DNA from: Candidatus Aerophobota bacterium
GTDB taxonomy: Bacteria > Aerophobota > Aerophobia > Aerophobales > AE-B3A
DNA: 26,222 bases
Direction: 5' to 3'
Assembly: GCA_004376485.1 (NCBI GenBank)
Contig: SOJT01000095.1
Span: 1 to 26,222 of the forward strand
Shown piece after piece: positions 1,221 to 19,931 of this stretch (its first letter is position 1; the number at the start of each line of letters is the position of its first letter). The translations under genes and the position numbers were made by a program. The notes beneath the pieces were generated by a model that saw nothing but the letters and a program-made list of their open reading frames with translations, had not been told where the DNA came from and did not search any database.

Positions 1221-1226
1221 GGAGAT

Positions 1227-2342: not shown

Positions 2343-2364
2343 TAATATGCCGATTCAACGTGTA

Positions 2365-2393
2365 CTAGTTTCTCCTGAGAAGGAGAGGTCTAG
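2365..2393 (+). other. Intercistronic stem-loop with GAGA tetraloop
   Basis: TCTCCT-GAGA-AGGAGA (2371-2386), extendable through G-U pairs and a 1-nt bulge to CTAG/CTAG. Confidence 0.45.
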
Positions 2394-2410
2394 ATATGGA
2401 AGAGAAGTGA

Positions 2411-2420
2411 AAGGAGGTGA
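2411..2420 (+). promoter_or_regulatory. Orphan Shine-Dalgarno AAGGAGGTGA upstream of binding-protein gene 1
   Basis: Full anti-SD complement with no ATG/GTG/TTG at usable spacing; the gene's own RBS (AAAGGAG) lies ~40 nt downstream. Confidence 0.5.
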
Positions 2421-2468
2421 GGTAGGCAAAGTTAAGAGAAAAAGGCGAACGAAAGGAGATAAACTCTC

Positions 2469-3935: not shown

Positions 3936-3950
3936 TAAAGAAGGTAATAC

Positions 3951-3988
3951 CCGGAAGATGGGGTGGGTTTACTCATCCCGTCTTTCGG
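3951..3988 (+). terminator. 17-bp RNA hairpin (4 G-U pairs) after binding-protein gene 1; stabiliser/attenuator rather than a classical terminator
   Basis: CCGGAAGATGGGGTGGG-TTTA-CTCATCCCGTCTTTCGG pairs fully when G-U is allowed; no U-tract follows. Confidence 0.65.
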
Positions 3989-4007
3989 TCAAGATAAGGA
4001 GAAGACC

Positions 4008-4892
4008 GTGCTAAAACGGAAGTATACTGGATATCTCTTACTCCTTCCAACTTTGGCTTTGTTGGCGTTTCTCAGTCTAGTTCCTTTTATTTATGCTTTT
4101 AACTTGAGCCTGCGTGACTTGAATCTGAGAATCCCTCGGTTAGCAGGACAGTTTGTTGGCGTGGATAATTTCAGGTATCTAATGAGAGAGGATTCTGAAT
4201 TCTGGCATTCCATGGGGATCACCGTGCTTTTTTTGGTAGTGGTGGTAAGCATAGAGTTTGTAGCGGGGTTTGCTTTGGCTCTACTCTTAAATCGAGAGTT
4301 TAAGGGGAAAAGGATCGTGGTCTCTTTAGCCGTAATTCCTATGATGATAGCTCCTGTCGCAGTGGGACTGATGTGGAGGGTTGCCCTCAACTACGAACTG
4401 GGCATAGTAACTTACCTCTTGAAAAGTATAGGTATACCTATGAAAGAGGCATTATTGGGAACCTCTGCTACTGCACTAGCCACACTTATGGTTATTGATA
4501 TATGGCAATGGACTCCCTTCATATTTCTCATAATACTAGCTGGGCTTCACAGTTTGCCCAAAGAACCGTATGAGGCTGCTCAGGTGGACGGCGCTTCTAA
4601 ATGGAAAATATTCCGTCTGGTAACTCTTCCCTTGCTAAAACCTTTGATAATCATTGCTTTACTTTTAAGGGTAATAGACGCCTTCAAAACTTTCGATCAG
4701 GTTTATATTCTCACCGGAGGCGGACCAGGAAATGCCACTGATTTGGTCTGCATGTTTGCTTACAGGACTAATTTCAAGATATGGAATCTGGGGTATGGAG
4801 CGGCTGTAGTGCTGGTCATTTTTCTCGTGATCCTTATAGTAACCGCTTTCTTTTATGCTGTTACTCAGAAAAAAGAGGAGGAGGTAGTATAA
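4008..4892 (+). CDS. Carbohydrate ABC transporter permease (MalF/UgpA-like), importer 1
   Basis: EAA loop YEAAQVDGASKWKIFRLVTLPLL, FVGVDNF, DIWQWTPF. Start moved from 3963 to GTG 4008, which follows AAGGAG and avoids the hairpin. Confidence 0.92.
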   Translation: MLKRKYTGYLLLLPTLALLAFLSLVPFIYAFNLSLRDLNLRIPRLAGQFVGVDNFRYLMREDSEFWHSMGITVLFLVVVVSIEFVAGFALALLLNREFKGKRIVVSLAVIPMMIAPVAVGLMWRVALNYELGIVTYLLKSIGIPMKEALLGTSATALATLMVIDIWQWTPFIFLIILAGLHSLPKEPYEAAQVDGASKWKIFRLVTLPLLKPLIIIALLLRVIDAFKTFDQVYILTGGGPGNATDLVCMFAYRTNFKIWNLGYGAAVVLVIFLVILIVTAFFYAVTQKKEEEVV

Positions 4893-4893
4893 G

Positions 4894-5739
4894 TTGAAAA
4901 AAACAAAAGTCCTTACTTCGAGAAGACAGTTCATAGAGATAGGGCTTCTATCCGTGGCTGCTTTCATCGTATTTCTGGAAGTTGCCCCTTTTTTGTGGAT
5001 AGTATTAATGTCTTTTAAGAGCAGACTGGATATTTTTGAGATTCCACCTAAGTTAATATTCAATCCTATTCTGGACAACTATTATAATGCTTTTGTGGAA
5101 GGCCCTTTTAGCAAGTATCTGATTAATTCCTTGATTATCGACTCCTCAAGTACGGCTCTGGCAATTCTGATTGGAACTCTGGCTGCCTATGCTTTTTCCA
5201 GATTTAAAATATGGGGTGGAAAACAAATTTTCTTTTACATTCTTACTACCAGGATGTGTCCTCCCGTTGTGGTTGCTCTTCCCTTGTTTATGATTTATTC
5301 AAAGCTAAAGTTATATGATACCCATATTGGAGTAATTCTGATACATACTATTTTTAATTTAGCTCTGGTTATATGGTTGATGAGAGGTTTCTTTGATGAG
5401 ATTCCTCAAGAAATAGACCAGGCAGCTATGATTGATGGTCATAGTGAGTGGACTATTTTCAGAAAGTTTATCTTTCCTTTAGTTCTCCCCGGAATTGTAG
5501 TTAGCGCTATGTTCTGTCTGGTATTCTCCTGGAATGAATTTTTATTTGCCTTGATCCTAACCCAATTTGACGCAACCACTCTACCCGTTGGAGTTCCTCA
5601 ACTCGTGACTTCCAGAGGGACATACTGGGGACAAGTTGCCGCAGTGGGAGTGGTTATTACCCTACCGGTATTAATTTTTGCTGTGACTTTCCACAGGTAT
5701 CTGATAAGAGGGCTCACTTTCGGTGCTATCAAAACATAG
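4894..5739 (+). CDS. Carbohydrate ABC transporter permease (MalG/UgpE-like), importer 1
   Basis: TTG start after GAGGAGG; AAYAFSRF, EIDQAAMIDG, FSWNEFLFAL, RGLTFGAIK. Confidence 0.93.
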   Translation: MKKTKVLTSRRQFIEIGLLSVAAFIVFLEVAPFLWIVLMSFKSRLDIFEIPPKLIFNPILDNYYNAFVEGPFSKYLINSLIIDSSSTALAILIGTLAAYAFSRFKIWGGKQIFFYILTTRMCPPVVVALPLFMIYSKLKLYDTHIGVILIHTIFNLALVIWLMRGFFDEIPQEIDQAAMIDGHSEWTIFRKFIFPLVLPGIVVSAMFCLVFSWNEFLFALILTQFDATTLPVGVPQLVTSRGTYWGQVAAVGVVITLPVLIFAVTFHRYLIRGLTFGAIKT

Positions 5740-6120: not shown

Positions 6121-9015
6121 ATGAAGAGTAAAGTTATAAGTGAGCGGACAATCAATAGTCTTTATGGAATAATTCTAATACTATTTTTCTTTTCTGGAGT
6201 TAGTGCCCTAACCTACCAGATAATATGGGTGAAAACGCTGGGCTTGGTGTTTGGAGTTGCTACTTTTGCAGTAAGTGCGGTCTTAAGTTCCTTTATGGCC
6301 GGGTTGACATTGGGGAGTTTGTGCTTTGGGAGAGTCGTAGATAAGCACAGGGCTCCTCTAAAAATATTTGCCTTCCTGGAGCTGGGAATCGGAGTATTTG
6401 CTTTATTATTCCCTTTTCTCCTTTCCAAAATAACCCATAGTTATATTTACACGTATTGGCATTTTCACACCAGTTTTTACTTGTTTAGCTTACTTCGTTT
6501 CTTAATGATCTTTTCTCTGCTGTTGGTTCCTACTTTTTTGATGGGAGGTACCTTACCGGTTTTAAGCAAGCTTTGTGTTAGGAACCTGAAAATTTTGGGT
6601 CAGAAAGTAGGAACCCTTTATTCAGTTAATAATTTAGGTGCAGCTTTTGGCTGTTTCCTTACCGGTTTCTTTTTGGTCCGTTTAATCGGACTTACTAACA
6701 GTATTTATCTTGCTGCTGCAATAAACATTTCAATAGCAATAAGTAGTCTTATTTTAAGTAGGTCTTCCTTTACGTTTCCGGAAAATCCTACCCCCAAGGG
6801 AGCTAGTTCCCGGATGATAAACCCGAGACCAGTTCCCAAAAAAGAGAAGAAAGCTGAACACTCCAGTACTTTCTTGATTTACCTTTTGCTGATAATTTTC
6901 ACTATAAGCGGGTTTATCTCCCTGGCATACGAGGTCATCTGGACCCGAATTCTTTCTGCTTCAGTACTTGCTAACTCTGTTTACTCTTTTAGCACAGTAG
7001 TAATTACTGTTATAGTGGGTCTGGCTGTGGGGAGTTTTATTTGTGCCAGATTTATAGATAAAAAACAAGATGTATTAACTTTGTTTGGTATTGTTGAAGC
7101 AGGTATTGGAGTATCTGCCTTTTTGCTATTGCCAGCTTTTAACAGAATACCTTTTATAATTGGAAGTATATCCCCGGCTCTTTTTGGTTCCGCACCCTCC
7201 TGGAGTATGTCTGTAGCCTCAGAATTTTTTCCCGCCTTTTTATTAATGATTATTCCTACTACTCTTATGGGAATGACCTTTCCTTTAATGAGTAAGATTT
7301 ACACAAGGAGTTTGCGTAAATTGGGAAGTAAGATTGGGGAAGTTAACAGTCTTGATACAGCAGGAGCTGTTTTTGGTTCTTTTGCTGCAGGTTTTTTATT
7401 TATTCCTTGGCTTGGCATGCAAAAAAGCATTGTGGCACTTTCTCTGTTGAGCATAGGAATGGGTGGTATAGTTATTTATTTCAATCCCCACACTAGAAAA
7501 ATGCTAAAATGGGCACTTATTTCTCTTCTGGTGGTGATAGTAATGGCAAGTATTGCCTTTATCCCGCGTGATTTTGATTTTTGGAGAAAAGGTAGGGTAC
7601 CTGGAGAAAGACTGCTGTATTACAGGGAAGATGCTGCAGCCACAGTTGTAGTGCGGGAATATCCCCAAGGTGGTCGATTAAACCGCGTTTTGGAGGTTGA
7701 CGGTACAGATGTTGCGGGAACAGATTATATGCTTAAGAGCACTCAAAAACTCCAAGGTCATCTCCCTCTACTGATCCATAAAGCTCCTGAAAAAGTCCTC
7801 ATTGTTGGATTCGGGAGTGGAGGAACCACCTGGGCAGTATCCCGGCATAATGTGAAAAGGATAGATACCGTTGAGCTTGTTCCCAGCGTAATAGAAGCTG
7901 CTGCCAGACATTTTACCGAAGTTAATCATGGGGTAATAAACGATCCTCGAGTCAATATCAAAGTTGGTGATGGTAGAAATTTTGTTCTAACCACTCAGGA
8001 AAAGTATGATGTAATACTAACCGAGTCAATTCATCCCATATATGCTGGTAATGGCAATTTATACAGTCGGGAGTATTTTAACTTATGCAAGGAGAAATTG
8101 ACGGAGAATGGAATTATGAGTGTATGGATTCCTCTATGGGCTTTGCCTGAGCAGCATTTCAAGATGATTATAGAAACATTCCGTCAGGTATTTCCTCATT
8201 CTACACTCTGGTATGTAGCAAACTGTTTAAATCGGCAGGTATATCTAATAGGCAGTAGAGATAAGCTGAAAATCGACTTCAAATCCTTGCAAATCCGGAT
8301 GTCTATGGAAAACGTTGCCCAGGATCTGGAAGAGATTGGGATGAACAATCCATTTCTTCTGTTAAGTTCATTTATGATGAAAGAGGTTTCTCTCAAAAGA
8401 TACGCAAAAGGAGCAAAAATAAACAGCGATGATCATCCTCTTCTGGAATATTTTGATTACCCCTATTTAGAATTCTTTCCCTCTGAGAGCTTCCATGTAA
8501 GAACTGTATATGAGAATCTTTCCGCCATTGAGGACTACAAAGAGGAGGTAACGCCCTTTTTGATTAATCTTGGAGATGATAAAGAAGAAGTTGAAGAAGT
8601 AAAGCAAATGTTGTCAATATATTCTAAATCTACAAAGCACACCACCAAGGGTATAATTTATTCTTTAAGGGGGAGACTGAAACAGGCTATTCAGGAGTAT
8701 GGGAGAGCTTTGGAGACAAATCCTCAGGATAAATCGGCTCAACGGTTACTAACTCACTTACTCGAGCATATTTATGTGAACAGAGGCAATGAGCTGCAGT
8801 ATAAAGGGGATATCGAGGGGGCAATTGCCTCTTACAAAAAGGCGCTGGAAGTGAATCCTAATTCTACTATCGCCCGTTATAACTTAGCTCTAACTTATTT
8901 AAGGAAAGGAATGAGAGAAGAGGCAAAGATTGAATTAAAGAAAGCTTTACAGATAGACCCAGAAATGAAAGCTGCCCAGAGACTGCTGGGTCAGTTGGAA
9001 AATTTTGAATACTAA
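6121..9015 (+). CDS. Fused multi-TM membrane domain / spermidine-synthase-like SAM-binding domain / TPR protein
   Basis: Two tandem membrane repeats (SGVSALTYQIIW...FLMGGTLP and SGFISLAYEVIW...TLMGMTFP); VLIVGFGSGGT, VELVPSV, GDGRNF, YDVILTESIHP; C-terminal TPR-like helices (AIASYKKALEVNP, ARYNLALTY). Confidence 0.88.
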   Translation: MKSKVISERTINSLYGIILILFFFSGVSALTYQIIWVKTLGLVFGVATFAVSAVLSSFMAGLTLGSLCFGRVVDKHRAPLKIFAFLELGIGVFALLFPFLLSKITHSYIYTYWHFHTSFYLFSLLRFLMIFSLLLVPTFLMGGTLPVLSKLCVRNLKILGQKVGTLYSVNNLGAAFGCFLTGFFLVRLIGLTNSIYLAAAINISIAISSLILSRSSFTFPENPTPKGASSRMINPRPVPKKEKKAEHSSTFLIYLLLIIFTISGFISLAYEVIWTRILSASVLANSVYSFSTVVITVIVGLAVGSFICARFIDKKQDVLTLFGIVEAGIGVSAFLLLPAFNRIPFIIGSISPALFGSAPSWSMSVASEFFPAFLLMIIPTTLMGMTFPLMSKIYTRSLRKLGSKIGEVNSLDTAGAVFGSFAAGFLFIPWLGMQKSIVALSLLSIGMGGIVIYFNPHTRKMLKWALISLLVVIVMASIAFIPRDFDFWRKGRVPGERLLYYREDAAATVVVREYPQGGRLNRVLEVDGTDVAGTDYMLKSTQKLQGHLPLLIHKAPEKVLIVGFGSGGTTWAVSRHNVKRIDTVELVPSVIEAAARHFTEVNHGVINDPRVNIKVGDGRNFVLTTQEKYDVILTESIHPIYAGNGNLYSREYFNLCKEKLTENGIMSVWIPLWALPEQHFKMIIETFRQVFPHSTLWYVANCLNRQVYLIGSRDKLKIDFKSLQIRMSMENVAQDLEEIGMNNPFLLLSSFMMKEVSLKRYAKGAKINSDDHPLLEYFDYPYLEFFPSESFHVRTVYENLSAIEDYKEEVTPFLINLGDDKEEVEEVKQMLSIYSKSTKHTTKGIIYSLRGRLKQAIQEYGRALETNPQDKSAQRLLTHLLEHIYVNRGNELQYKGDIEGAIASYKKALEVNPNSTIARYNLALTYLRKGMREEAKIELKKALQIDPEMKAAQRLLGQLENFEY

Positions 9016-9097
9016 ATGGTACTCTTACAGGAGGGCTCCCTTTTTGTAGTGATTTTATTGATAATTAGAAAGTACTTAATTAGAGGAATGACTCTGG

Positions 9098-9166: not shown

Positions 9167-9196
9167 TTGACAAAATTTTCGAATATGGTATTTAAT
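9167..9196 (+). promoter_or_regulatory. Putative sigma70-type promoter for the aor operon
   Basis: Perfect TTGACA (9167-9172) followed by TG-G-TATTTA (16-bp spacer) or TTTAAT (18-bp spacer). Confidence 0.55.
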
Positions 9197-9214
9197 ATTC
9201 AAAGACAATTATTT

Positions 9215-9307
9215 GTAGGCGAGGTTTCCCTTAATCCCTTTACCCATATCTGCAACAAAAATGTAAGTCTTCAGGGTTCCTGGGGAGGAGAAGTAGAAAT
9301 TTCTTGA
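9215..9307 (+). pseudogene. Remnant resembling a Zn-dependent MDR dehydrogenase (VGEVSLNPFTHICNKNVSLQGSWGGEVEIS*)
   Basis: Open frame 9185-9307. GEVSLNP...K...GSWG resembles the late strand/helix region of TM0436-like MDR enzymes, and it ends EIS* exactly as the gene at 3-65 does. Confidence 0.45.
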
Positions 9308-9328
9308 AGAAAGGGAGGAGAAAATGCC
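9295..9328 (+). repeat. 34-bp direct repeat, copy 2 (contains the aor RBS and start)
   Basis: AGAAATTTCTTGAAGAAAGGGAGGAGAAAATGCC, one mismatch to 53-86. Confidence 0.9.
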
Positions 9329-11243
9329 GTTTGGATACAATGGAAAAATTCTGCGGGTTGATCTATCTAAAGGAGAAATAAAGGTTGAGGAGCCGGATGA
9401 GCACTTTTACCGAACCTATGGGGGAGGATCCTCTCTTGGAGCCTACTATCTTTTAAAGGAGATGTCTCCTGGGGTTGATCCCTTTAGTCCTGATAATATT
9501 ATTGTTTTTGCCGGTAGTGTGGTGAGCGGTGCACCTGTGCCAGGATTTGCTCGCTCTGGCATAGTATTCAAATCTCCCCTCACCGGTGCTATAGCAGATA
9601 CCCAGGCAGCAGGCTACTTTGGCCCGGAGCTTAAGTTTGCCGGCTTTGATGCTATCATTGTCAAGGGAAAATCGGAGAAGCCGGTCTACCTTTGGATACA
9701 GGATGGTGAAGTTGAGATAAAAGATGCTTCCCACATCTGGGGCAAAACTACCGGTGAGGCACAGGATACTATTCGCACCGAACTTGGTGATGAGCGAATT
9801 ATTGTTGCCGGTATCGGACAGGCAGGAGAAAATCTTGTAAGGTACGCCTGTGTGCTTAACAACTTAAAACATGCCTGGGGGAGATTAGGGGCTGGGGCGG
9901 TTATGGGTTCCAAGAACCTGAAAGCTATAGCAGTTAGAGGTCACAGGAAGCTGGAGATGAAGGATAGAGAAACCGTTCTTTCCATAGCAAGACACTTCTC
10001 CAGCAACTTTATGAAAGAAAGCCCTGATAATAGGGGTCTGCACGACCTTGGAACTGCCCAGTATGTTATGGGTCAAAATGAAGATGGTCAGCTTCCTACC
10101 CGTAACTTTCAAACAGGATATTTCGAGAAAGCAGAGAATATCTCCGGGGAAAGAATGAGAGATACTGTCCTGACTAAAAGAGAGGGCTGCTATGCCTGTT
10201 CGGTAAGGTGCAAAAGGGTAGTTAAAGCTGATTCATCTTACAAGGTTGATCCTGCCTACGGCGGACCGGAGTATGAAACCATAGGTATGTTAGGTTCAGA
10301 TTGCGGCGTTGATGATCTTGTTGCAGTTTGCAAGGCTAATGAGCTTTGCAACAAATACGGCCTTGATACCATTTCCACCGGTGCGAGTATTGCTTTTGCT
10401 ATGGAGGCCTATGAGAAGGGGATTATTAGCAAAGGGGATACAGGGGGAATAGATTTGAGATTTGGCAATGCCGATGCTATGGTAAAGATGGTGGAGGTGA
10501 TTGCCAGAAGGGAGGGAATTGGCGATGTCCTGGCAGAAGGGGTAAAAAGAGCAGCAGAGAAATTGGGCAAGGGAGCAGAAAAGTTTTCCCTCCATGTTAA
10601 AGGAGAGGAGCTTCCCGCCCATGATGCCCGAGTTAAGGGGCACCTTGCCCTGATGTATGCTCTCTCTCCCATGGGAGCAGACCATGTCCAGGCAGAGCAT
10701 GATGGTGCTTTTACTCCTGGAGCAGATTCCTTCTTCGCCGATAGGGTAGAACCTCTGGGTATTCTTGAACCTCTTGAGCTTAGCAGTATAGACCATAAAA
10801 AGGTGAGAAGGTTCTTTTATTTCCAGAATGTTTTCGGCATGGTGGATACCTTAACCTTATGTCTTTTCGCCTTTGCCCCCTGCCGTTACTTTACCTTCAA
10901 AGAATTAGTAGATCTGGTTAGAGCTATCACTGGATGGGAGATGAGTTTATGGGAGCTAATTAAATTAGGAGAGCGAAAGGTAGCTATGTTTAGAGCCTTT
11001 AATGTGAGGGAAGGATTTACCAAAGAGGATGATTGGTTGCCTGAGAGAATGTTTGAAGGTATTCTTACGGGACCCCGCAAAGGACAAAAGGTGGATAAGG
11101 ATAAACTACGAGAGGCAATAGATCTTTACTATGAGATGGTGGGATGGAATGAAGACGGTGTTCCCACCAAGGGAAGGCTTGCTGAGCTTGATCTATTCTG
11201 GGTAGCTGAGGAGCTTGAGAGACAGGCTAAATATAAGAAATAA
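9324..11243 (+). CDS. aor: Aldehyde:ferredoxin oxidoreductase family (tungsto-/molybdopterin) enzyme
   Basis: GYNGKILRVDLS, KSPLTG, ELKFAGFDAII, GRLGAGAVMGSKNLKAI, 4Fe-4S motif CYACSVRC, GPEYET, CNKYGLDTIST, YYEMVGW. Confidence 0.93.
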   Translation: MPFGYNGKILRVDLSKGEIKVEEPDEHFYRTYGGGSSLGAYYLLKEMSPGVDPFSPDNIIVFAGSVVSGAPVPGFARSGIVFKSPLTGAIADTQAAGYFGPELKFAGFDAIIVKGKSEKPVYLWIQDGEVEIKDASHIWGKTTGEAQDTIRTELGDERIIVAGIGQAGENLVRYACVLNNLKHAWGRLGAGAVMGSKNLKAIAVRGHRKLEMKDRETVLSIARHFSSNFMKESPDNRGLHDLGTAQYVMGQNEDGQLPTRNFQTGYFEKAENISGERMRDTVLTKREGCYACSVRCKRVVKADSSYKVDPAYGGPEYETIGMLGSDCGVDDLVAVCKANELCNKYGLDTISTGASIAFAMEAYEKGIISKGDTGGIDLRFGNADAMVKMVEVIARREGIGDVLAEGVKRAAEKLGKGAEKFSLHVKGEELPAHDARVKGHLALMYALSPMGADHVQAEHDGAFTPGADSFFADRVEPLGILEPLELSSIDHKKVRRFFYFQNVFGMVDTLTLCLFAFAPCRYFTFKELVDLVRAITGWEMSLWELIKLGERKVAMFRAFNVREGFTKEDDWLPERMFEGILTGPRKGQKVDKDKLREAIDLYYEMVGWNEDGVPTKGRLAELDLFWVAEELERQAKYKK

Positions 11244-11255
11244 TTGAGGCTATAA

Positions 11256-11510
11256 ATGGAAGTAAAGGTAAACTTGAGACTTCTAAAAATAGAGGATGAG
11301 CGGGAGGTAGAGCTTAAAGAGGGCTCCACAGTAAAGTCTTTGCTGGAGAGACTGACCTCAATTTACGGTGAGGACTTGAAAAGATTGATTGGGGATGCCG
11401 AGAAAGGCTTCAGGGTAATAGTAATGGCTAATGCAGAAATGGTAAAATATGATCAGAGGTTAAAAGATAAGGATGAGCTTTCTCTGATTTTGCCCGTTGC
11501 AGGTGGGTGA
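11256..11510 (+). CDS. moaD: MoaD/ThiS-family ubiquitin-like sulfur carrier
   Basis: 84 aa, beta-grasp pattern, LKDKDELSLILPVAGG with C-terminal GG; directly after aor. Confidence 0.85.
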   Translation: MEVKVNLRLLKIEDEREVELKEGSTVKSLLERLTSIYGEDLKRLIGDAEKGFRVIVMANAEMVKYDQRLKDKDELSLILPVAGG

Positions 11511-11603
11511 TTAGATAAAAAGGTGTAAGTGCTGGTAATTTTAAAAGCTAATACTGCTGCGGGTATCAAAACTTAAACAGGAAAAAGTCAGGAGTAAGGC
11601 CTG

Positions 11604-11613
11604 AAGGAGGTGA
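11604..11613 (+). promoter_or_regulatory. Orphan Shine-Dalgarno AAGGAGGTGA upstream of binding-protein gene 2
   Basis: Same decamer as 2411-2420. The nearest standard start (TTG 11636) is 22 nt away, and the likely true start at 11699 has its own GAGGAGG. Confidence 0.5.
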
Positions 11614-11698
11614 GAGAGGAAAGGCTGCCCTGACTTTGGGGGGAAAGAAAGACTCTTCTCAGAAAGAGAATAGAGTATTTAAAAGAGGAGGAATACTG

Positions 11699-13153
11699 AT
11701 GGGAAAAAGAAGTATTAAACGTCTAGAGTGGGCCCTAGTCGTCATAGCTCTGGTTGTCCTAGTGGGGGGTCAGGCTCTTGGTGCCGAAAAGAAATTCAGT
11801 TTAGCTGATGTCCCCGAGATAAAGAATAAGAGACCAATCCATGTGACTTTGGAGGCAGGGGGTTCAGCGGACTTGATAATCCCGTATCTTCAAAAGTTTG
11901 CAGAACACACCGGGGTCAAGGTTACTTCAGAGTCGATGGTATTTGCCTCCTTATATTCCAAGGTTATCGTGGAGCTCATAGCAAAAACTGGAGCATACGA
12001 TATTGTTGTTACTGAGACTTCCTGGTCAAATGAGTGGGAGGATTACCTTTACCCCATGCAGGATCTGGCTAAAGAGTATGACCCCGAAGGCGTGGAAGGT
12101 CTGGAAAGATATCTGGCAGGTCACGATCCAGGCCTACTCCGCATGTGCTCCACCGTGGACGGGAAACTCATGGGAATACCGTACTACACCTATACCCTGA
12201 TATACATCTATCGTGAGGATGTGTTCAACCACCCCGCGGAGAAGGCAAACTTCAGGAAAAGATACGGATACGAGCTGGCTCCAGCTCAAACCTGGGCACA
12301 GCTGCGCGATCAGGGTGAGTTTTTTACCAGGAAAAAAGGCGAGAAGTTAAAGGGTGAGGTTCTTGAGAAGGATGTCTATGGTTTAAGTATGATGGCCGGT
12401 AGATACCCTCATGTTCAGGATGAGGTGGGTGCAAGGGTGTGGAGCAGAGGTGGACATTGGGCTTCGCCGGTCAGGGACGAGGCAGGTAAACTCATAGGCT
12501 TTAAAATAACCGAAAAGGATAAAAGAATACTCCAGTGGGCTTTCGAGGACTATGTAAGGGACCTTGCCTTTGCCCCCCCTGGGACTTTGTCCGGTTACTG
12601 GGATTTCGCCACAGCACAGTTTGCGGCTGGAAATGCCATCATCATACCTCACATATACGACTCCTTATGGAACTGGGCTTCCTCAGTTGAAGATGAAATC
12701 CCTGGTGCTAAGGCTGCTGCTGCTCTCACTCCGGGTAACAGACCATACACCGGTGCCTTCCATTTCTCTCCCAGCCGAGATAGCCAAAATCCGGAGGCAG
12801 CTTACTGGCTCCTGAAGTATATTGGCTCCTATCAAAATCAAAAGGAAATGGCCGAAGGGGGATGGGTCTCTGTAAGAAGGGACGTTCTGGAAGATCCTCA
12901 ATATACGGATCCTAAGTGGCATCGCCAATTTGGATGGGCACGTGCTTCACTTGATACATGGGATGAGCAGTTTGAAGATGTGGAAGACTACCTGCACTTC
13001 AACAGTGCGGCATTCGGTAAGCTTTATGAGATGATGACCATTATATGTCATGAGAATGCGATTCAGCAAAGAACACCAGCAGAGGGTGTGCAGGAGTGGG
13101 TGAAGGTCTTCACCGATTTACAGACAAAACATGGGAAACTGCCAGTCCTGTAA
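11699..13153 (+). CDS. Extracellular solute-binding protein, family 1, importer 2
   Basis: Start moved from 11636 to ATG 11699 (GAGGAGG RBS; signal peptide MGKRSIKR...GQALG); TGVKV, YDIVV, IYIYREDVF, PEAAYWLLKY. Confidence 0.9.
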   Translation: MGKRSIKRLEWALVVIALVVLVGGQALGAEKKFSLADVPEIKNKRPIHVTLEAGGSADLIIPYLQKFAEHTGVKVTSESMVFASLYSKVIVELIAKTGAYDIVVTETSWSNEWEDYLYPMQDLAKEYDPEGVEGLERYLAGHDPGLLRMCSTVDGKLMGIPYYTYTLIYIYREDVFNHPAEKANFRKRYGYELAPAQTWAQLRDQGEFFTRKKGEKLKGEVLEKDVYGLSMMAGRYPHVQDEVGARVWSRGGHWASPVRDEAGKLIGFKITEKDKRILQWAFEDYVRDLAFAPPGTLSGYWDFATAQFAAGNAIIIPHIYDSLWNWASSVEDEIPGAKAAAALTPGNRPYTGAFHFSPSRDSQNPEAAYWLLKYIGSYQNQKEMAEGGWVSVRRDVLEDPQYTDPKWHRQFGWARASLDTWDEQFEDVEDYLHFNSAAFGKLYEMMTIICHENAIQQRTPAEGVQEWVKVFTDLQTKHGKLPVL

Positions 13154-13168
13154 CGAGGAATAGGCTAG

Positions 13169-13208
13169 GGGTACCCCTGGAGTAAAATATAATATCTCCG
13201 GGGGTACC
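13169..13208 (+). terminator. 13-bp GC-rich hairpin after binding-protein gene 2 (stabiliser/attenuator)
   Basis: GGTACCCCTGGAG / CTCCGGGGGTACC with one G-U pair; outer GAATAG/CTATTC can extend it; no U-tract. Confidence 0.65.
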
Positions 13209-13388
13209 TGTCCTCTATTCGAAGCTAGGGGTTGCTCAAGGAAGAGGTAGCACCGAAACAGAACTGGTAGCGGTGTTGGCTCAGTAGACTGAATAAAGAG
13301 TGAGACGGAAAGCAGCAGAACAGGTCATGGCGAAGAGGTAATATCAATGTTGAGGAAAAGACCTATTTTACCTTAGGGAGACAGAACT

Positions 13389-14309
13389 ATGAGAGAGGCG
13401 GTACTTGGGGAGTCTCTGGAAACAAGAAGAACATTCTGGCAGATCCTCGCCGCTGATAGGTATATTAAATGGTTTCTCATACTCCCCCTATTGGTGGTGC
13501 TGTTATGCTTCATGTTCTATCCGCTATTCTACTGCTTGTACATGTCTTTTCACGAGTATGTCCTGCGAGCCCCTCCTCTTTTTATTGGAGCAGAAAACTA
13601 TCGAGTGGTACTGCACGATATGGTGTTCTGGCAGGCTATTGGCCGTACTTTTTACGTATTAGTTGTGTGTATAGCTGTGGAACTTAGTCTCGGCATGGGG
13701 ATTGCACTTTTGCTGAACCGGGAATTTAAGGGACAAAACACCATACGGGGACTTTGTCTTTTGCCTCTTCTAATCTCACCACTTGCCATGTCATTAATGT
13801 GGAATTACATGCTGCACGTTCAATTTGGCATAGTAAATCAAGTTTTGGTGTGGCTTAGGCTTGGGGCGGTTGAGTGGATCTCAAATCCAAAAATTGCAAT
13901 ATATAGCATCATGTTTATTTCCATCTGGCAATGGACCCCTTTCTCCATCTTCGTTCTCCTTGCCGGTTTGAGAGGCCTGCCCAAAGATGCACTTGAAGCG
14001 GCAAGAGTTGACGGGGCTTCCCGTTGGTTTACCTTCCGCAGATTAACCTTGCGAATGTTGACGCCACTCATAATCATCATCATCTTACTCCGGACCATGT
14101 GGTTGATAAGGATATTTGACCCGCTCTATGGAACTACGCGAGGTGGTGTGGGAACAGAGTCGCTGGATTGGTTTATGTACAGAATTTCATTCGTTTTCTT
14201 TGACGTGGGGAAAGGATCGGCACTGGCACTGTTCTCTCTCTATGTGACCATTGTTCTCTGTGCCATTCTGTACCGACAGTTGATAAAGGCCCTGGGAGCA
14301 GCAAGATAG
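13389..14309 (+). CDS. Carbohydrate ABC transporter permease (MalF/UgpA-like), importer 2
   Basis: FIGAENY, ALLLNREFKG, IWQWTPF, EAA loop LEAARVDGASRW; GGGAG RBS. Confidence 0.93.
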   Translation: MREAVLGESLETRRTFWQILAADRYIKWFLILPLLVVLLCFMFYPLFYCLYMSFHEYVLRAPPLFIGAENYRVVLHDMVFWQAIGRTFYVLVVCIAVELSLGMGIALLLNREFKGQNTIRGLCLLPLLISPLAMSLMWNYMLHVQFGIVNQVLVWLRLGAVEWISNPKIAIYSIMFISIWQWTPFSIFVLLAGLRGLPKDALEAARVDGASRWFTFRRLTLRMLTPLIIIIILLRTMWLIRIFDPLYGTTRGGVGTESLDWFMYRISFVFFDVGKGSALALFSLYVTIVLCAILYRQLIKALGAAR

Positions 14310-14326
14310 ATCAGGAGGTGAAGAAA

Positions 14327-15130
14327 ATGAGACGGGTGATGTTTTGGGTAGCCATAGTCATTATCCTATTGGTATTTCTTCTCCCAATAGCATGGGTATA
14401 TGTGACCTCGTTAAAGTCACCTGCGGATATTTTCAGACCCGAGAAATTAGCTTTTGCCCCCACTTTTTATAACTATAAGTATATAGCTACGGTTAGGCCA
14501 TCTTTGATGGAATTCAGGAATGCTCTGATCGTAAGCGTCGTCAGCACAGCTCTGGTGATGGCTGTCTCGCTGCCTGCTGCTTACAGCTTTGCTCGATTCA
14601 ACACCGGTGGGGGACATCTACTTTTTATCACTATTTCAACAAGGATGTTTCCTCCCGTAGTAGCGGCAGTACCTTTCTTTTTTCTTTTTAGAGATTTGGG
14701 ACTTCTGGATACACACCTTGGACTAATTCTACTATATTTGTACTTTAATATGTCCTTTGCCACGTTTTTGTTATATGGATTTTTCAGAGAAATCCCGGAG
14801 GAGCTTGAGCATTCTGCTATGGTAGACGGCTATGGGCGGTTAAGTATCTTTCGCAAGATCATATTTCCTTTGATCAAACCGGGAGCAGCAATTACAACTG
14901 TATTTTGTCTTATATTCGCATGGAATGAGTTCTTCTTTGCCTTTCTCTTTACCCGTAGACTCGCCAGGACAGTGGCGGTAGGACTAGCAGTGTTCTGGGG
15001 TTCTATAGAAATCCAGTGGGGGCCTATGGCTGCATTGATGGCTCTTGCCATCCTGCCAACCTTAGCTGCTGCCTGGTTCATGCAAAGATTTATAATCCGG
15101 GGATTAACATTTGGAGCTGTTAAGGGATGA
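14327..15130 (+). CDS. Carbohydrate ABC transporter permease (MalG/UgpE-like), importer 2
   Basis: AAYSFARF, ELEHSAMVDG, FAWNEFFFA, RGLTFGAVK; ATG 14327 preferred over GTG 14318, which lies inside the SD GGAGGTG. Confidence 0.93.
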   Translation: MRRVMFWVAIVIILLVFLLPIAWVYVTSLKSPADIFRPEKLAFAPTFYNYKYIATVRPSLMEFRNALIVSVVSTALVMAVSLPAAYSFARFNTGGGHLLFITISTRMFPPVVAAVPFFFLFRDLGLLDTHLGLILLYLYFNMSFATFLLYGFFREIPEELEHSAMVDGYGRLSIFRKIIFPLIKPGAAITTVFCLIFAWNEFFFAFLFTRRLARTVAVGLAVFWGSIEIQWGPMAALMALAILPTLAAAWFMQRFIIRGLTFGAVKG

Positions 15131-15242
15131 CAAGATAGACTTTTGTTTTTTGAAGCATAAGACAGTCTTTGCTTTGGGATGAGTTTTTGGGCACCGGTGG
15201 TAGGCTTGACAGATGAAACCGCAGAATGCGAGGTGAGTGGGA

Positions 15243-15410
15243 ATGGCTTGGGGAGATAGGCTCTTTTGGGGAATTGTAATTCTTATCGGGATTCTTTTCC
15301 TCTGGCTCGGACTTCTGGAAAAATTTGTTCCTATCTGGGTTGGAGTAGTATTGGGATTTTTTGCCTTGTTCGTGATGCTAAAATATGGGCCGCGCCCGAA
15401 AGAAAGATAA
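15243..15410 (+). CDS. 55-aa membrane protein, GlpU/DUF2160-like (MAWGDRLFWGIVILIGILFLWLGLLEKFVPIWVGVVLGFFALFVMLKYGPRPKER)
   Basis: Translated by hand. GAGGTG RBS, GDRLF motif, two hydrophobic segments, basic tail; 15 of the first 32 residues are identical to 5767-5928. Confidence 0.82.
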   Translation: MAWGDRLFWGIVILIGILFLWLGLLEKFVPIWVGVVLGFFALFVMLKYGPRPKER

Positions 15411-15432
15411 GAAGGAAAGGGAACTTAAAGTT

Positions 15433-16554
15433 ATGGCAGAGGTGAAAGTTGAAAATTTAACAAAAAAGTATGGAAGACTAATAGCAGTTAATAATGTTAG
15501 CTTTAGTTGCAAGGATGGGGAGTTTTTCAGTATCTTAGGTCCCTCAGGTGCTGGCAAGACCACGACTCTTGAGCTGATAGCAGGAATAAAAAAGCCTGAT
15601 TCAGGTGATATATATATTGGTAGCTCTCTTGTTAACGATCTTTCCCCTCAGCAAAGAGATGTGGCTATGGCTTTTGAGAAATACAGTCTTTATCCTCATT
15701 TTTCCGTATATGAAAATATAGCTTTTCCTCTTAGAGCCCCCACCAGGAAAGAAAAACTTTCCCCCAAAGAGGAAAGAAAAAAAGTTGAGGAGATGGCCAA
15801 TCTTTTAGGAATTGGGGAACTCTTGGAGAGAAGACCCCAGCACTTAAGTGGAGGTCAAAGACAAAGAGTCTCACTTGCCAGGGCAATGGTTCGAAGACCA
15901 AAGGTCTATCTTCTTGATGAGCCCATAGCTCACCTTGATGCTAAGTTGAAGGTATCAGCAAGGACAACACTCAAAAGACTTGCCGATAAGCTGGGAATTA
16001 CTATTATTTATGTAACCCATGACTATAAGGAGGCTCTGGCACTCTCTGACCGTATCCTGATTCTAAGAGAGGGTATAATTGAGCAAGTTGGTACACCTGA
16101 GGAGGTTTATCTTTATCCTTCCAGTGATTTTGTGGGAAGGATTATAGGAGATCTTCCCATAAATTTGATAGACAGTGAAGTTATCAAAAAAGATGGAAAA
16201 ACTTTTCTTAAAGTCGAAGAAGAGTTTTCTATTCAGATTCCCCAGGATTTAGTCGGCTTGGCGGAAAAGGTAGCCCGGGAGGAGGATGGCAGACGCAGGA
16301 TCCGCATTGGAATAAGGCCTATTTATGTTAAGGTGTCCAAAGAAAAGTTATCCAATGCTTCCTTTGAACTACCTGTATATGCAGTTGAACATAAAGCTGA
16401 TAGCAGCATAGTTAGCTTTGAATTAAAGGATACATTTCTCATAGCAAGAACGGAAGAGAGGGTTAACTGGCGTATGTCGGAAAAAGTTTGGCTTGACTTT
16501 GAGCAGAAGCATCTCCACTTTTTCAAGAAAACTGTGGATGTATCCAAAAAGTAA
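15433..16554 (+). CDS. Carbohydrate ABC transporter ATP-binding protein, importer 2 (GAGKT type)
   Basis: GPSGAGKT, LSGGQ, LLDEPIAHLD, YVTHDY. Start moved from 15385 to 15433 (MAEVKVENL, cf. MAEVVLKEV), removing the overlap with the small membrane gene. Confidence 0.93.
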   Translation: MAEVKVENLTKKYGRLIAVNNVSFSCKDGEFFSILGPSGAGKTTTLELIAGIKKPDSGDIYIGSSLVNDLSPQQRDVAMAFEKYSLYPHFSVYENIAFPLRAPTRKEKLSPKEERKKVEEMANLLGIGELLERRPQHLSGGQRQRVSLARAMVRRPKVYLLDEPIAHLDAKLKVSARTTLKRLADKLGITIIYVTHDYKEALALSDRILILREGIIEQVGTPEEVYLYPSSDFVGRIIGDLPINLIDSEVIKKDGKTFLKVEEEFSIQIPQDLVGLAEKVAREEDGRRRIRIGIRPIYVKVSKEKLSNASFELPVYAVEHKADSSIVSFELKDTFLIARTEERVNWRMSEKVWLDFEQKHLHFFKKTVDVSKK

Positions 16555-16565
16555 GGTGATGACAA

Positions 16566-17675
16566 ATGAGTAGAGTTGATGCTAAACACATGTGGAAAAT
16601 TTATGAAGGGGGCGTAGAGGCAGTTAAAGACGCTAATTTTTACTGTGAGGATGGCGGGTTCGTGGCAATTCTTGGCCCCTCAGGGTGTGGAAAATCATCC
16701 ACCTTGCGGATGATTGCGGGATTAGAGGAGATTACCAGAGGTGAGCTTTTATTTGACGGCAAACTGGTTAATCATTTAGGTCCTCGCCAGAGAAATATTG
16801 CTCTTGCTTTTGAGACCTATGCACTTTATGCTCCCTTAACCATTTATGAGAATATTGCTTTTCCCTTAAAGGCAGGGGGATTAAAAAAATCCGAGGTAGA
16901 TAAAAAAGTTAAACAAATTGCCGATATGCTTAATTTAACCGATGTTTTGAGGAGAAAGCCGGCCCATTTAAGTGGCGGTCAGCAACAAAGAGTATCACTA
17001 GCTCGAGCCCTGGTTAGAGATCCAAATGTGTTCCTCCTTGATGAACCTCTCTCTCATATGGACCAGCGTGTGCGTGTTGTGCTCAGGGCAAGAATTAGAA
17101 GGATTCATGATGAGCTTGGAAGCACTACAATTTATGTTACTCACGATCAGGAAGAGGCTATCTCTCTTGCCGATAGCATAATTGTTATGAATGTGGGTGT
17201 TATTCAGCAAATTGGGACAGTGGATGAGCTGTGGAATCACCCTGTGAATAAGTTTGTGGCAGGTTTTCTGGGTGAGCCAGCCATGAACTTTCTTGAAGGG
17301 AAGATTGAGAAACCTCAGGAAGTCTCCATAGCTGGTGGAGAAGGAGAGGCTACTTTCCAGCTCAGCGGGGAGGTTGAGGAGAGATATGTTGGCGGTGAGG
17401 TTACTGTTGGTATCAGGCCCCAGAAAGTTATAGTTTCTCCCAATAAAAAAGGAGATAAACTCGTCCCTTCCCTTATTGAGGTTATAGAACCTCTGGGAGA
17501 AAGTAAGATCTTAACGGCCAAACTGGATGATGTTGAGCTTAAGATCGTTACCTCCTATGAGGTAGAAGCTCGGGTAGGACAGATAATCTGGCTGGAGTTT
17601 AAACCCGAGGATATCCACATTTTTGATAAAGAAACAGAAAACGCTTTGATCGAGAAACTGAGCAGAAACGGATAA
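16566..17675 (+). CDS. Carbohydrate ABC transporter ATP-binding protein, importer 2 (GCGKS type)
   Basis: GPSGCGKS, LSGGQ, FLLDEPLSHMD, YVTHDQ, GFLGEPAMN. Confidence 0.95.
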   Translation: MSRVDAKHMWKIYEGGVEAVKDANFYCEDGGFVAILGPSGCGKSSTLRMIAGLEEITRGELLFDGKLVNHLGPRQRNIALAFETYALYAPLTIYENIAFPLKAGGLKKSEVDKKVKQIADMLNLTDVLRRKPAHLSGGQQQRVSLARALVRDPNVFLLDEPLSHMDQRVRVVLRARIRRIHDELGSTTIYVTHDQEEAISLADSIIVMNVGVIQQIGTVDELWNHPVNKFVAGFLGEPAMNFLEGKIEKPQEVSIAGGEGEATFQLSGEVEERYVGGEVTVGIRPQKVIVSPNKKGDKLVPSLIEVIEPLGESKILTAKLDDVELKIVTSYEVEARVGQIIWLEFKPEDIHIFDKETENALIEKLSRNG

Positions 17676-17745
17676 ATATCCGGGCAGTTACTTGGGGTAA
17701 AAGTAGCCCTGAACAAGAATCTTAAGAAAAAAAGGAGGCTTTGCC

Positions 17746-18471
17746 ATGCTAAAAGTTAAGGAATGGGGGTATAGTAATCCAGTCATTTCACCTCTTTATC
17801 CTTCTCCACCTCTGTATTGGATAGATTTTCAGGTGCAGTTGGTTGTTTACGAGACAGATATTTCCAATGTGGAAAAGCTTCTTCCCTATCCTTTAGAGCC
17901 TAACGGTAATAAGGTGATTACCTGGATTTCTGATGAACCTTTCACCAATCAGGGTAGTGGTAAAGAAGCAGCAATCTATGTGCAGGCAAGGTACAAGGAC
18001 TATGTGGGTGTTTATGAACCGTTTTTGTATGTAAACTCAGAAATTCCTCTTTGTGGAGGGCGAGAAATTTGGGGGTATTGCAAAAAGATAGCTAATATTT
18101 CCTTGCATTTTGAAAAGGAACAGGTAAGGGGGGAAGTAGAAAGAGTACGTACCAAGATAATGAAGTGTCTTTGTATTCGTGAGGTACCAGCAAAGTTAGA
18201 AGAGCTACCTTTCGGCCCTATATTCTCGGTGAAAGTGATCCCTGGTGCTGCAGAAGATGAGCCCCCTCTGAGACAACTGGTCCTTACGGAAGGTGAAATG
18301 ACAGCCAAAGAGGGTATGTTCTACAAAGGTAAAGGCTCAGTAGACTATGAAAGATCAGAGATAGATCCTACCTACATTCTGGAAGTCAAGAGAGTTATTG
18401 CTGGTTATTACGGGATACTCAGTTTTGTGTTGCCCCATGGGAAGATTATTTACCGCTACGAAGATGTGTGA
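17746..18471 (+). CDS. Acetoacetate decarboxylase (ADC)-like superfamily protein
   Basis: P.SPLYP.PP N-terminus, LLPYPLEP, GGREIWGYCKK (family motif GRExWGxPKK with the Schiff-base Lys); AGGAGG RBS. Confidence 0.82.
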   Translation: MLKVKEWGYSNPVISPLYPSPPLYWIDFQVQLVVYETDISNVEKLLPYPLEPNGNKVITWISDEPFTNQGSGKEAAIYVQARYKDYVGVYEPFLYVNSEIPLCGGREIWGYCKKIANISLHFEKEQVRGEVERVRTKIMKCLCIREVPAKLEELPFGPIFSVKVIPGAAEDEPPLRQLVLTEGEMTAKEGMFYKGKGSVDYERSEIDPTYILEVKRVIAGYYGILSFVLPHGKIIYRYEDV

Positions 18472-18502
18472 GGACTGGCCGAGGAGTTTTAAAATAGCAC
18501 AG

Positions 18503-19606
18503 ATGAGCTTGATTACTGGTAATCCGTCTAAGTACATACAAGGAGTCGGAGCTGTCAAGGAGATCGGAAAGTATACCTCCGTATTGGGAAACAAAGCTCT
18601 GGTGACGGGAGGGCGCACAGCTTTATCTGTCTCACAGGAGGCGATTGGGGAGAGCTTTCGGGCCCACAAGGTAGAATATGTAGTAGAACGATTCCGGGGA
18701 GAGAGCACAAGGACTGAAATTGACCGACTGGTGAATATTGGGAGGGAAAATAAGGTCAATGTTGTAATTGGGGTGGGGGGAGGAAAGGCACTAGATGCAG
18801 CAAAAGTGGTCTCCTTTTATCTGGAAACACCGCTGGCCCTAGTTCCTACTATTGCCGCTACAGATGCGGCGTGTAGTGCCCAGGCTCCGATATACACGGA
18901 TGAGCATACCTTTGAAAAGCTCATTATTCGCCCAAAAAATCCGGATTTGGTTCTGGTAAGTACAGACGTAATAGTCAAAGCCCCGGTGAGATTCCTTGTT
19001 GCTGGAATGGGAGACGCTATATGCACAAAGTTTGAGGCTGAGGCCTGTCGCAAATCATCTATCATAAATTTTCACGGAGGCAGTGCCGGTGAGTCAGCTC
19101 TTTGGCTGGCTCGATGGTGTAGCGATACTGTACTAGAGTATGGGGTGGAGGCAAAGAAGTCCGCCGAGCAAGGGGTGGTGGACGAGGTTCTGGAGAAGGT
19201 AGTAGAAGCTTGCGTTTATGCAAGTAGTGTCTCTTTTGAGAACTGCGGGCTTTCCCTAGCGCACGGATATTTGGTTGGATTTACCGGCTTGAAGGAGACT
19301 CAACAATATCTTCACGGGGAAATCGTTGGTTTCTCTACCCTTGCCCATATTGTTCTGGAAGAGCACCCGAAGGAAGTAGTGGACAAGGTATTTAGATTTT
19401 GCTATTCGGTGGGTTTGCCAGTGAGGCTGGCTGATATCGGCTTGAAGGATGCATCCCGGGAGTTGCTGATGAAGGCAATTGAGGATTCGCGCAGCAAGAT
19501 TGAATGGCTTCACAATGAGCCATTTCCTGTTACCAGCGAGATGCTCTATGAGGCGCTCATTACTGCAGATAGAATGGGTTCAGAGCTCCTGAGCCGACAG
19601 CATTAG
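18503..19606 (+). CDS. Glycerol dehydrogenase family (GldA-like, family III metal-dependent polyol dehydrogenase)
   Basis: PSKYIQG, GVGGGKALDAAK, PTIAATDAACS, metal ligands in AGMGDA, LAHG and LHGEIV with the GldA His-His spacing. Start moved from 18398 to ATG 18503. gldA not assigned because the substrate is unproven. Confidence 0.88.
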   Translation: MSLITGNPSKYIQGVGAVKEIGKYTSVLGNKALVTGGRTALSVSQEAIGESFRAHKVEYVVERFRGESTRTEIDRLVNIGRENKVNVVIGVGGGKALDAAKVVSFYLETPLALVPTIAATDAACSAQAPIYTDEHTFEKLIIRPKNPDLVLVSTDVIVKAPVRFLVAGMGDAICTKFEAEACRKSSIINFHGGSAGESALWLARWCSDTVLEYGVEAKKSAEQGVVDEVLEKVVEACVYASSVSFENCGLSLAHGYLVGFTGLKETQQYLHGEIVGFSTLAHIVLEEHPKEVVDKVFRFCYSVGLPVRLADIGLKDASRELLMKAIEDSRSKIEWLHNEPFPVTSEMLYEALITADRMGSELLSRQH

Positions 19607-19661
19607 TGAAGTAATAGGCAGGAGCTTTCCTCTCACTTCCAGCGGGTAAGGTAGATCTCTA

Positions 19662-19931
19662 AGATCTCTGTCTCCCCTAAGTCTTATAGCGAACCTAAGT
19701 TCTCTTACCAAAACGCCCTTAAAGATGATCCCTCTATCTCCACCTCTGTCTAAACTCCATATTCCCTTTTTTCCAATAACCTCTCTTACAAGGTCTATAG
19801 CGGTGAGGATTTGTTTATTTTCGCTTTGGAAGCCATCAGCTCTTTGGGAGTGAAGCTCTCCATAAAGAGGAACCACCTTATCTCCTTGGAGGATCAGCAC
19901 CTAAGATTTCTAAGGTCCAATATCCCTTTCT
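19662..19931 (-). mobile_element. Frameshifted, truncated DDE transposase remnant (IS4-like)
   Basis: Minus strand reads KGYWTLEILGAD, then after a 1-nt shift near 19892 LQGDKVVPLYGELHSQ...FQSENKQIL...KGIWSLDRGGDR...LRFAIRLRGDRDL. The DRG motif and F.IRL pattern are typical of DDE_Tnp_1-clan enzymes. No terminal repeats seen. Confidence 0.7.

Follow-up and report, generated by a model that had tools for sequence, protein, structure and literature searches.

The gene unit and its setting

The window considered here, that is, the whole stretch of 26,222 nucleotides (nt) that was analysed, is one entire contig (SOJT01000095.1) from a Candidatus Aerophobota (Aerophobetes) genome (GCA_004376485.1; 0.95 Mb, 82.6% complete). 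At 9324–19606 it carries a unit of ten plus-strand genes, every one intact, in which a tungsten-type aldehyde oxidoreductase (AOR), an ATP-binding cassette (ABC) importer, a predicted Schiff-base enzyme with the fold of acetoacetate decarboxylase (ADC) and a dehydrogenase of the GldA subfamily are brought together. A first-pass annotation of this DNA had described ten co-oriented genes with neither a kinase nor a ferredoxin gene, and both statements hold within the unit. The ten genes probably form a single module that handles a small polyhydroxy compound without a kinase.

The first two genes encode the large subunit of an AOR/tungsten oxidoreductase (WOR) of Class I type (9324–11243; 639 amino acids (aa); AFOR_N and AFOR_C domains) and a ThiS/MoaD-like, WorX-like sulfur carrier with a C-terminal GG (11256–11510; PF02597). 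The importer follows. It comprises a CUT1 carbohydrate-binding protein, or substrate-binding protein (SBP), of 484 aa (11699–13153; SBP_bac_1/8), permeases A (13389–14309) and B (14327–15130), both matching PF00528, a 55-aa membrane protein that resembles GlpU/DUF2160 (15243–15410; PF09928 at E=6.6e-4 and 20.4 bits, under the cut-off of 28), and two MalK/UgpC-like ATPases identified by profile matches (15433–16554 and 16566–17675). The unit ends with the ADC-like gene (17746–18471; 241 aa; PF06314) and the GldA-like gene (18503–19606; 367 aa; PRK09423 at 400.7 bits against a cut-off of 336). Ribosome-binding sites and relatives were used to revise the start codons of the SBP (11699), permease B (14327), the small gene (15243), ATPase 1 (15433) and the GldA-like gene (18503). 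When nine genes were tested against the relative G013, all were found to be under purifying selection, with ratios of non-synonymous to synonymous change (dN/dS) of 0.02–0.32. The ADC-like gene has the lowest values (0.02–0.05), and the AOR gene stands at 0.09.

Conservation of the module and absence of a kinase

The ADC-like gene occurs at 64 loci in many phyla. The family is spread across Chloroflexota, Desulfobacterota, Bacillota, Actinomycetota, Bathyarchaeia and Aerophobetes, and among named genomes the closest matches to the window protein come from Candidatus Aerophobetes. A quick tree of the ADC-like sequences places the window in a clade of nine (SH-aLRT support 98). A GldA-family gene lies just downstream of the ADC-like gene at eight of these nine loci, and the contig of the ninth stops soon after the ADC-like gene. 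Outside the clade, none of the 49 loci of at least 12 kb (hereafter the kinase-type loci) has a GldA gene; an FGGY kinase occurs at 35 of them and DeoC or Eda at 29. No ADC-like neighbour was seen at any of 79 canonical GldA loci. The metagenome scan with a GldA alignment gave mostly canonical GldA and served as a control only, while plasmid searches and the ESM Atlas returned distant, generic matches only.

The same six-gene importer, the AOR (orthologues at 75–95% identity) and a zinc-containing alcohol dehydrogenase (Zn-ADH; 75–87%) recur across the clade, including three metagenome loci. These three are probably from other phyla, since their SBPs look like lipoproteins. A synteny check for AOR, ADC-like, GldA and importer genes, which the first-pass annotation had proposed, finds them co-conserved as a module in several lineages. 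Relatives also carry additional genes: a short-chain dehydrogenase/reductase (SDR) behind either the AOR or the MoaD gene, a UroD-like methyltransferase gene between the ADC-like and GldA genes, or IolN together with a mannonate oxidoreductase. A Thermotoga-type inositol pathway was rejected as the core of the module, as IolN occurs at one locus only and the Zn-ADH scores 154 bits against 450 for IolM.

Loci of the clade are usually without a kinase. The hybrid locus G023 does have a DeoR–cupin–aldehyde dehydrogenase–xylulokinase block, and its xylulokinase has no orthologue in four genomes of the window's genus (79–87% complete). Because clade loci are usually kinase-free and the G023 kinase lacks an orthologue in the genus, the absence of a kinase is a trait of the clade, not an accident of the window. 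Local loss of a kinase is overturned by the tree-based locus counts and by the G023 comparison. The window's genome carries three FGGY kinases, none of them orthologous, and no Dak1 match was found in its 82.6% complete sequence. Two G023 contigs (the end of L197 and the start of L009) overlap by about 56 nt, joining GntR–Zn-ADH to the AOR cluster; the ATPase pair appears twice there.

The ADC-fold enzyme

The ADC-like protein matches PF06314 at 136.7 bits (cut-off 29.8). Its predicted structure (model pLDDT 90) has a template modelling (TM) score of 0.87 to true ADCs, against 0.72–0.81 to MppR, Sbi00515 and Swit_4259. It shares the fold of these proteins (TM 0.72–0.87; ADCs 3BH2, 3BGT and 3C8W) and keeps their catalytic Lys and Glu, but is only 16–26% identical to them. 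In an alignment to 3BH2, Lys113, Lys114 and Glu74 correspond to Lys115, Lys116 and Glu76 of ADC, and all three are invariant across 192 family sequences. Two other positions differ: Arg29 and Glu61 of ADC are Phe28 and Trp60 in the window protein. Position 28 is Arg in none of the 192 sequences, and the Glu61 position is likewise replaced throughout. In ADC, Arg29 binds the carboxylate of the substrate. Since this residue is replaced in the family, a neutral carbonyl substrate is likelier. Arg29 is also absent from many other uncharacterised members of the ADC superfamily.

The family is compact, with a best 50%-cluster representative at 422 bits, a partial one at 306 and the next full-length one at 210. 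It has residues of its own (Ser62, Gln69 and Glu91), and its neighbours are sugar and polyol genes, unlike those of the ADC/MppR set. In enzymes of the MppR/Sbi00515 type, the Arg and Gln that bind alpha-keto acids presumably lie 8 and 4 residues before the Lys. At these positions, taken by counting back from Lys113, the family has an invariant Gly105 and Trp109. A broken ADC-like fragment with in-frame stops was seen in another Aerophobetes genome (L005; G008:C11:4005-4217).

True ADCs are thus the closest solved structures, which counts in favour of a beta-keto-acid decarboxylase. The AOR would then act earlier and make a sugar acid, a dehydrogenase would oxidise C3, and loss of CO2 would yield a shorter ketose, to be phosphorylated in the kinase-type loci. 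Lactonase-like, gluconokinase-like and xylulokinase genes in the kinase-type loci are consistent with such a route, as are IolN and a mannonate oxidoreductase, both above their cut-offs, in one Aerophobetes locus. This reading is nonetheless improbable. The protein scores 76.5 bits against the acetoacetate decarboxylase family PRK02265, where the cut-off is 150, every family member has other residues in place of Arg29 and Glu61, and in the kinase-free clade nothing would take the resulting ketose further. The same replacements disfavour the decarboxylation that had been offered as an option in the first-pass annotation. A true ADC for acetone formation was ruled out by the sub-cut-off score and the loss of Arg29.

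Importer, oxidoreductase and dehydrogenase

The importer has the six-gene layout of Rhizobium GlpSTPQUV (pRL9), with ATPases and permeases in pairs, a small DUF2160-type protein and a single binding protein, although the DUF2160 match is below its cut-off. The 55-aa protein is conserved at the same position in related loci. The two systems differ in gene order, their subunits are 26–37% identical, and the unit in the window has no glpK or glpD. The SBP aligns to GlpV at 24.5% identity over 163 of 574 aa. A plain Rhizobium-type glycerol operon was therefore ruled out, there being no GlpV orthologue, no glpK and no glpD in the unit. The SBP is 17–19% identical to solved sugar and polyol binders, and its best profile matches include a protein deposited as sorbitol-binding. 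Comparison of its predicted fold named no ligand. A second GlpSTPQUV-like importer lies at 126–5739, and its SBP aligns to Rhizobium GlpV over 480 aa (23%), more than the SBP of the operon does.

The best solved relative of the AOR is the P. furiosus enzyme (461 bits), and its motifs are intact (four cluster Cys, Glu318 and His454). Class I WORs have been defined elsewhere (PMC13328260), and the window protein belongs with them in having AFOR_N and AFOR_C, no small subunit and a ThiS-like neighbour. Enzymes of this class are often assigned to aldehyde detoxification, and a defined catabolic role is available for just 5 of 92 tungsten oxidoreductase clades (PMC13328260). The window AOR resembles that of P. 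furiosus in its single large subunit, its ThiS-like neighbour and its cofactor motifs, but is about 40% identical to it and is set within a unit for uptake and catabolism. This embedding suggests a dedicated substrate rather than detoxification. A TupABC-like transporter, named by resemblance only, is present on contig C31 of the genome. No small ferredoxin was found when the incomplete genome was scanned with a simple motif.

In the GldA-like protein, the metal ligands Asp171, His254 and His271 and the substrate-binding Asp121 are invariant. It falls below both equivalog cut-offs, for canonical GldA (346 against 700) and for haloarchaeal glycolaldehyde reductase (318.7 against 550). The pocket residues of canonical GldA (Leu127-Ser-Val, Tyr140 and His257-Asn258) were compared, and the canonical set is not present in the window protein. 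Tyr140 and His257-Asn258 are absent from 19 members of the subfamily and present in five canonical GldAs. The protein falls in a separate group with altered pocket residues, and because both equivalog tests were failed as well, glycerol is not assured as its substrate.

A proposed pathway

The substrate is most likely a small neutral polyhydroxy compound, either a sugar alcohol or the corresponding ketose, and would be degraded anaerobically. A neutral polyol or sugar is a better candidate than the hydroxy-acid that the first-pass annotation had also allowed. The whole reading that we favour, though only tentatively, runs from import through oxidation to a ketose, Schiff-base retro-aldol cleavage and an AOR step to the action of the GldA-like enzyme on a ketol. 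In the first step, the six-gene importer would take up a polyol, as its family suggests. The Zn-ADH, or an SDR in some relatives, would then oxidise the polyol to a carbonyl compound; in the window's genome the Zn-ADH gene is either disrupted or located past the end of the contig. Third, the ADC-fold enzyme would hold the neutral carbonyl as a Schiff base on Lys113 and cleave it in two, giving a ketol (dihydroxyacetone, for instance) and a hydroxyaldehyde, which might be glyceraldehyde or glycolaldehyde. Following the chemistry of its family, the AOR would turn the aldehyde into an acid and reduce ferredoxin. The GldA-like enzyme, fifth, might interconvert the ketol with a diol or triol, acting as a sink for NADH or re-routing the ketol via the Zn-ADH. 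A dihydroxy-acid dehydratase and a pyruvate-type oxidoreductase could complete the route from glycerate to acetyl-CoA. One distant locus continues with IlvD (above its cut-off) and a PorA-type oxidoreductase, and the window's genome has two IlvD genes.

An earlier non-phosphorylating scheme, proposed in the first-pass annotation, fares unevenly in this light. The kinase-free state holds at the level of the clade, and AOR oxidation of an aldehyde as the end step is plausible; other parts of the scheme are not supported as written. GldA is not necessarily the entry oxidase, because in relatives the module includes a core Zn-ADH, which was absent from the earlier gene list.

Retro-aldol cleavage as the step of the ADC-fold enzyme is a possibility to be held still more loosely than the scheme as a whole. 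It is favoured by the lack of any other aldolase in the module, against the DeoC or Eda found at 29 of the 49 kinase-type loci. A rather unlikely alternative keeps the same module and makes the ADC-fold enzyme a Schiff-base eliminase or isomerase, whose product the AOR would oxidise. An eliminase would strip water, or an alkoxy group, from the position adjacent to the carbonyl, converting glyceraldehyde or a 3-O-alkyl derivative to methylglyoxal, or an aldose to a 3-deoxyosone; an isomerase would interconvert ketose and aldose. The neutral pocket fits these reactions equally well, and they explain why the ADC-like gene stands beside aldolases and KDG-type (2-keto-3-deoxygluconate) genes in the kinase-type loci. 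UroD-like methyltransferases between the ADC-like and GldA genes at three loci, and corrinoid methyl-transfer genes next to the ADC-like gene at a Dehalococcoidales locus, hint at O-methyl substrates. The importer layout is that of a glycerol transporter, but the SBP is not an orthologue of GlpV. A triose could be isomerised by two alcohol dehydrogenases with no ADC-like enzyme, and methylglyoxal would be toxic as a main intermediate.

Several points weigh against the retro-aldol reading. None of the key proteins has a close characterised relative (22–26% identity for the ADC-like protein, 17–19% for the SBP and about 40% for the AOR). Because the kinase-type loci often have an aldolase of their own, the ADC-like family may serve a reaction that is not a cleavage. 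Of the eight GldA-linked loci, three were found by way of GldA, and most are from Aerophobetes kin. Genes around the core vary (UroD-like methyltransferase, IolN and SDRs), and the GldA subfamily occurs also at loci without an ADC-like gene.

A precedent for a Schiff-base enzyme gene beside gldA is the E. coli ptsA-fsaB-gldA operon, where fsaB encodes a Schiff-base aldolase using dihydroxyacetone, with a link to anaerobic dihydroxyacetone metabolism (PMC6643234). FsaB has a transaldolase fold and acts on sugar phosphate fed by a phosphotransferase system, whereas the unit in the window has an ADC fold, ABC uptake and an AOR.

The logic of cleaving by an aldol reaction and then oxidising and reducing the fragments is shared with fucose and rhamnose fermentation and with the non-phosphorylative Entner-Doudoroff pathway, in which glyceraldehyde is oxidised to glycerate by an aldehyde oxidoreductase. 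Unlike these pathways, the module in the window lacks a kinase as well as class II and KDG aldolases, and it uses other enzyme families. In the literature searched, mostly without subscription papers, there was no described pathway with this gene combination, no ADC with an FGGY kinase and no Aerophobetes AOR. Each part comes from a known superfamily and the logic resembles that of aldol-cleavage fermentations; the whole is a conserved kinase-free module around an uncharacterised Schiff-base enzyme.

In its most far-reaching form, which is more doubtful than the cleavage step itself, the proposal is that ADC-like proteins constitute a novel class I aldolase, or an eliminase, that uses the decarboxylase fold to act on sugars without a phosphate group, and that in the window's clade this enzyme feeds a dedicated tungsten AOR. 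The result would be a new polyol pathway that yields reduced ferredoxin without spending ATP on phosphorylation, and such a kinase-free route would suit energy-limited anaerobes. If true, a function would be available for a compact family that databases label acetoacetate decarboxylase despite the absent Arg29, and a tungsten oxidoreductase would gain a defined catabolic role. The aldolase or eliminase family would be common to anaerobes of sediments, digesters and the gut, and to archaea. The comparison yields a short testable list of one binding protein and four enzymes.

Promoter, terminators and the reduced state of the unit

A sigma70-like promoter precedes the unit on the plus strand at 9167–9196 (-35 TTGACA at 9167–9172, an 18-nt spacer and -10 TTTAAT at 9191–9196); in relatives it stands ahead of the GntR gene that heads the operon. 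The first-pass annotation had called the promoter clear. The site is indeed conserved in two relatives, with 92% identity to G013 and 85% to G014 in the -35 region, but it was not among the sites listed by a consensus promoter scanner, whose yield did not exceed chance (21 sites in the window against 24.1 in shuffles). Promoter and terminator scan counts, being at chance level, were dropped as evidence. A terminator-like hairpin at 9025–9049 ends the gene upstream. Within the unit a terminator scan found no intergenic U-tract terminator, in agreement with the earlier description. A strong hairpin without a U-tract, possibly mRNA-stabilising, lies at 13154–13210, directly 3' of the SBP stop codon.

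In relatives the order is promoter–GntR–Zn-ADH–AOR. Behind its promoter the window retains just an internal 84-nt stretch of the Zn-ADH gene (9214–9297, plus strand; 96% DNA identity to the G013 gene and 28 of 28 residues the same), after which comes the ribosome-binding site of the AOR gene. The unit is thus a deletion derivative, a reduced copy that has lost GntR and most of Zn-ADH. The final 20 codons and intact stop of a second Zn-ADH copy, one residue off the G014 C-terminus, lie at the contig edge (3–65, plus strand), and a whole copy may lie beyond it in unassembled DNA. The 3' end of the unit is marked by an unrelated insert (19617–19931, minus strand; single copy, no Pfam match), located by a break in the DNA alignment to G013, which carries a second SBP–permease cassette at this place.

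These losses bear on a quite unlikely explanation, that the genes are co-regulated without forming one pathway, as a broad-range scavenging cassette or a remnant decaying after loss of the regulator and Zn-ADH. The deletion of GntR and most of Zn-ADH and the replaced 3' cassette are in keeping with it; so are the frequency of AOR paralogues in the phylum, the common assignment of Class I WORs to detoxification (PMC13328260) and one distant locus where the AOR is a 52-aa stub only. However, the nine tested genes are all intact and constrained (dN/dS as given above), the AOR that recurs with the ADC clade is of one clade and not a random paralogue, and the Zn-ADH end at the contig edge has an intact stop.

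The insert region (19580–19931), present in single copy, has a 106-aa minus-strand frame without a Pfam match, whose DRG motif is reminiscent of DDE transposases. The Zn-ADH–AOR junction is present as a direct repeat of 34 nt (33 of them identical) at 53–86 and 9295–9328, which brackets the first ABC cassette and an aminopropyltransferase gene. The junction is single in relatives, and the repeat fits a duplication with reciprocal loss. The region 6121–9015 encodes a 964-aa protein in which membrane helices are fused to a spermidine-synthase domain and TPR repeats and which matches the MFS_SpdSyn family above its cut-off.

Kinase-type loci and other variants

The kinase-type cluster (L011–L074) combines the ADC-like gene and six-gene ABC importer with an FGGY kinase, a D-2-hydroxyacid dehydrogenase, DeoC or Eda, a cupin of the phosphoglucose isomerase (PGI) type and lactonase-like genes. 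It is widespread and uncharacterised, with hosts in Anaerolineae, Desulfobacterales, gut Bacillota, Bifidobacteriaceae and Bathyarchaeia; one cultured host is Lawsonibacter (L062). Eleven of the 49 kinase-type loci also hold a gene for a 316-aa protein family (L074:3396-4346, minus strand) that neither Pfam nor NCBIfam recognises. In an Olavius delta-1 symbiont (L028:10758-17812), NuoF-like and xanthine-dehydrogenase-family molybdoenzyme genes follow the ADC-like gene and replace the AOR. In a Dehalococcoidales genome (L014:2-5405), a methyl-transfer set of UroD-like, RACo and pterin-binding genes precedes the ADC-like gene.

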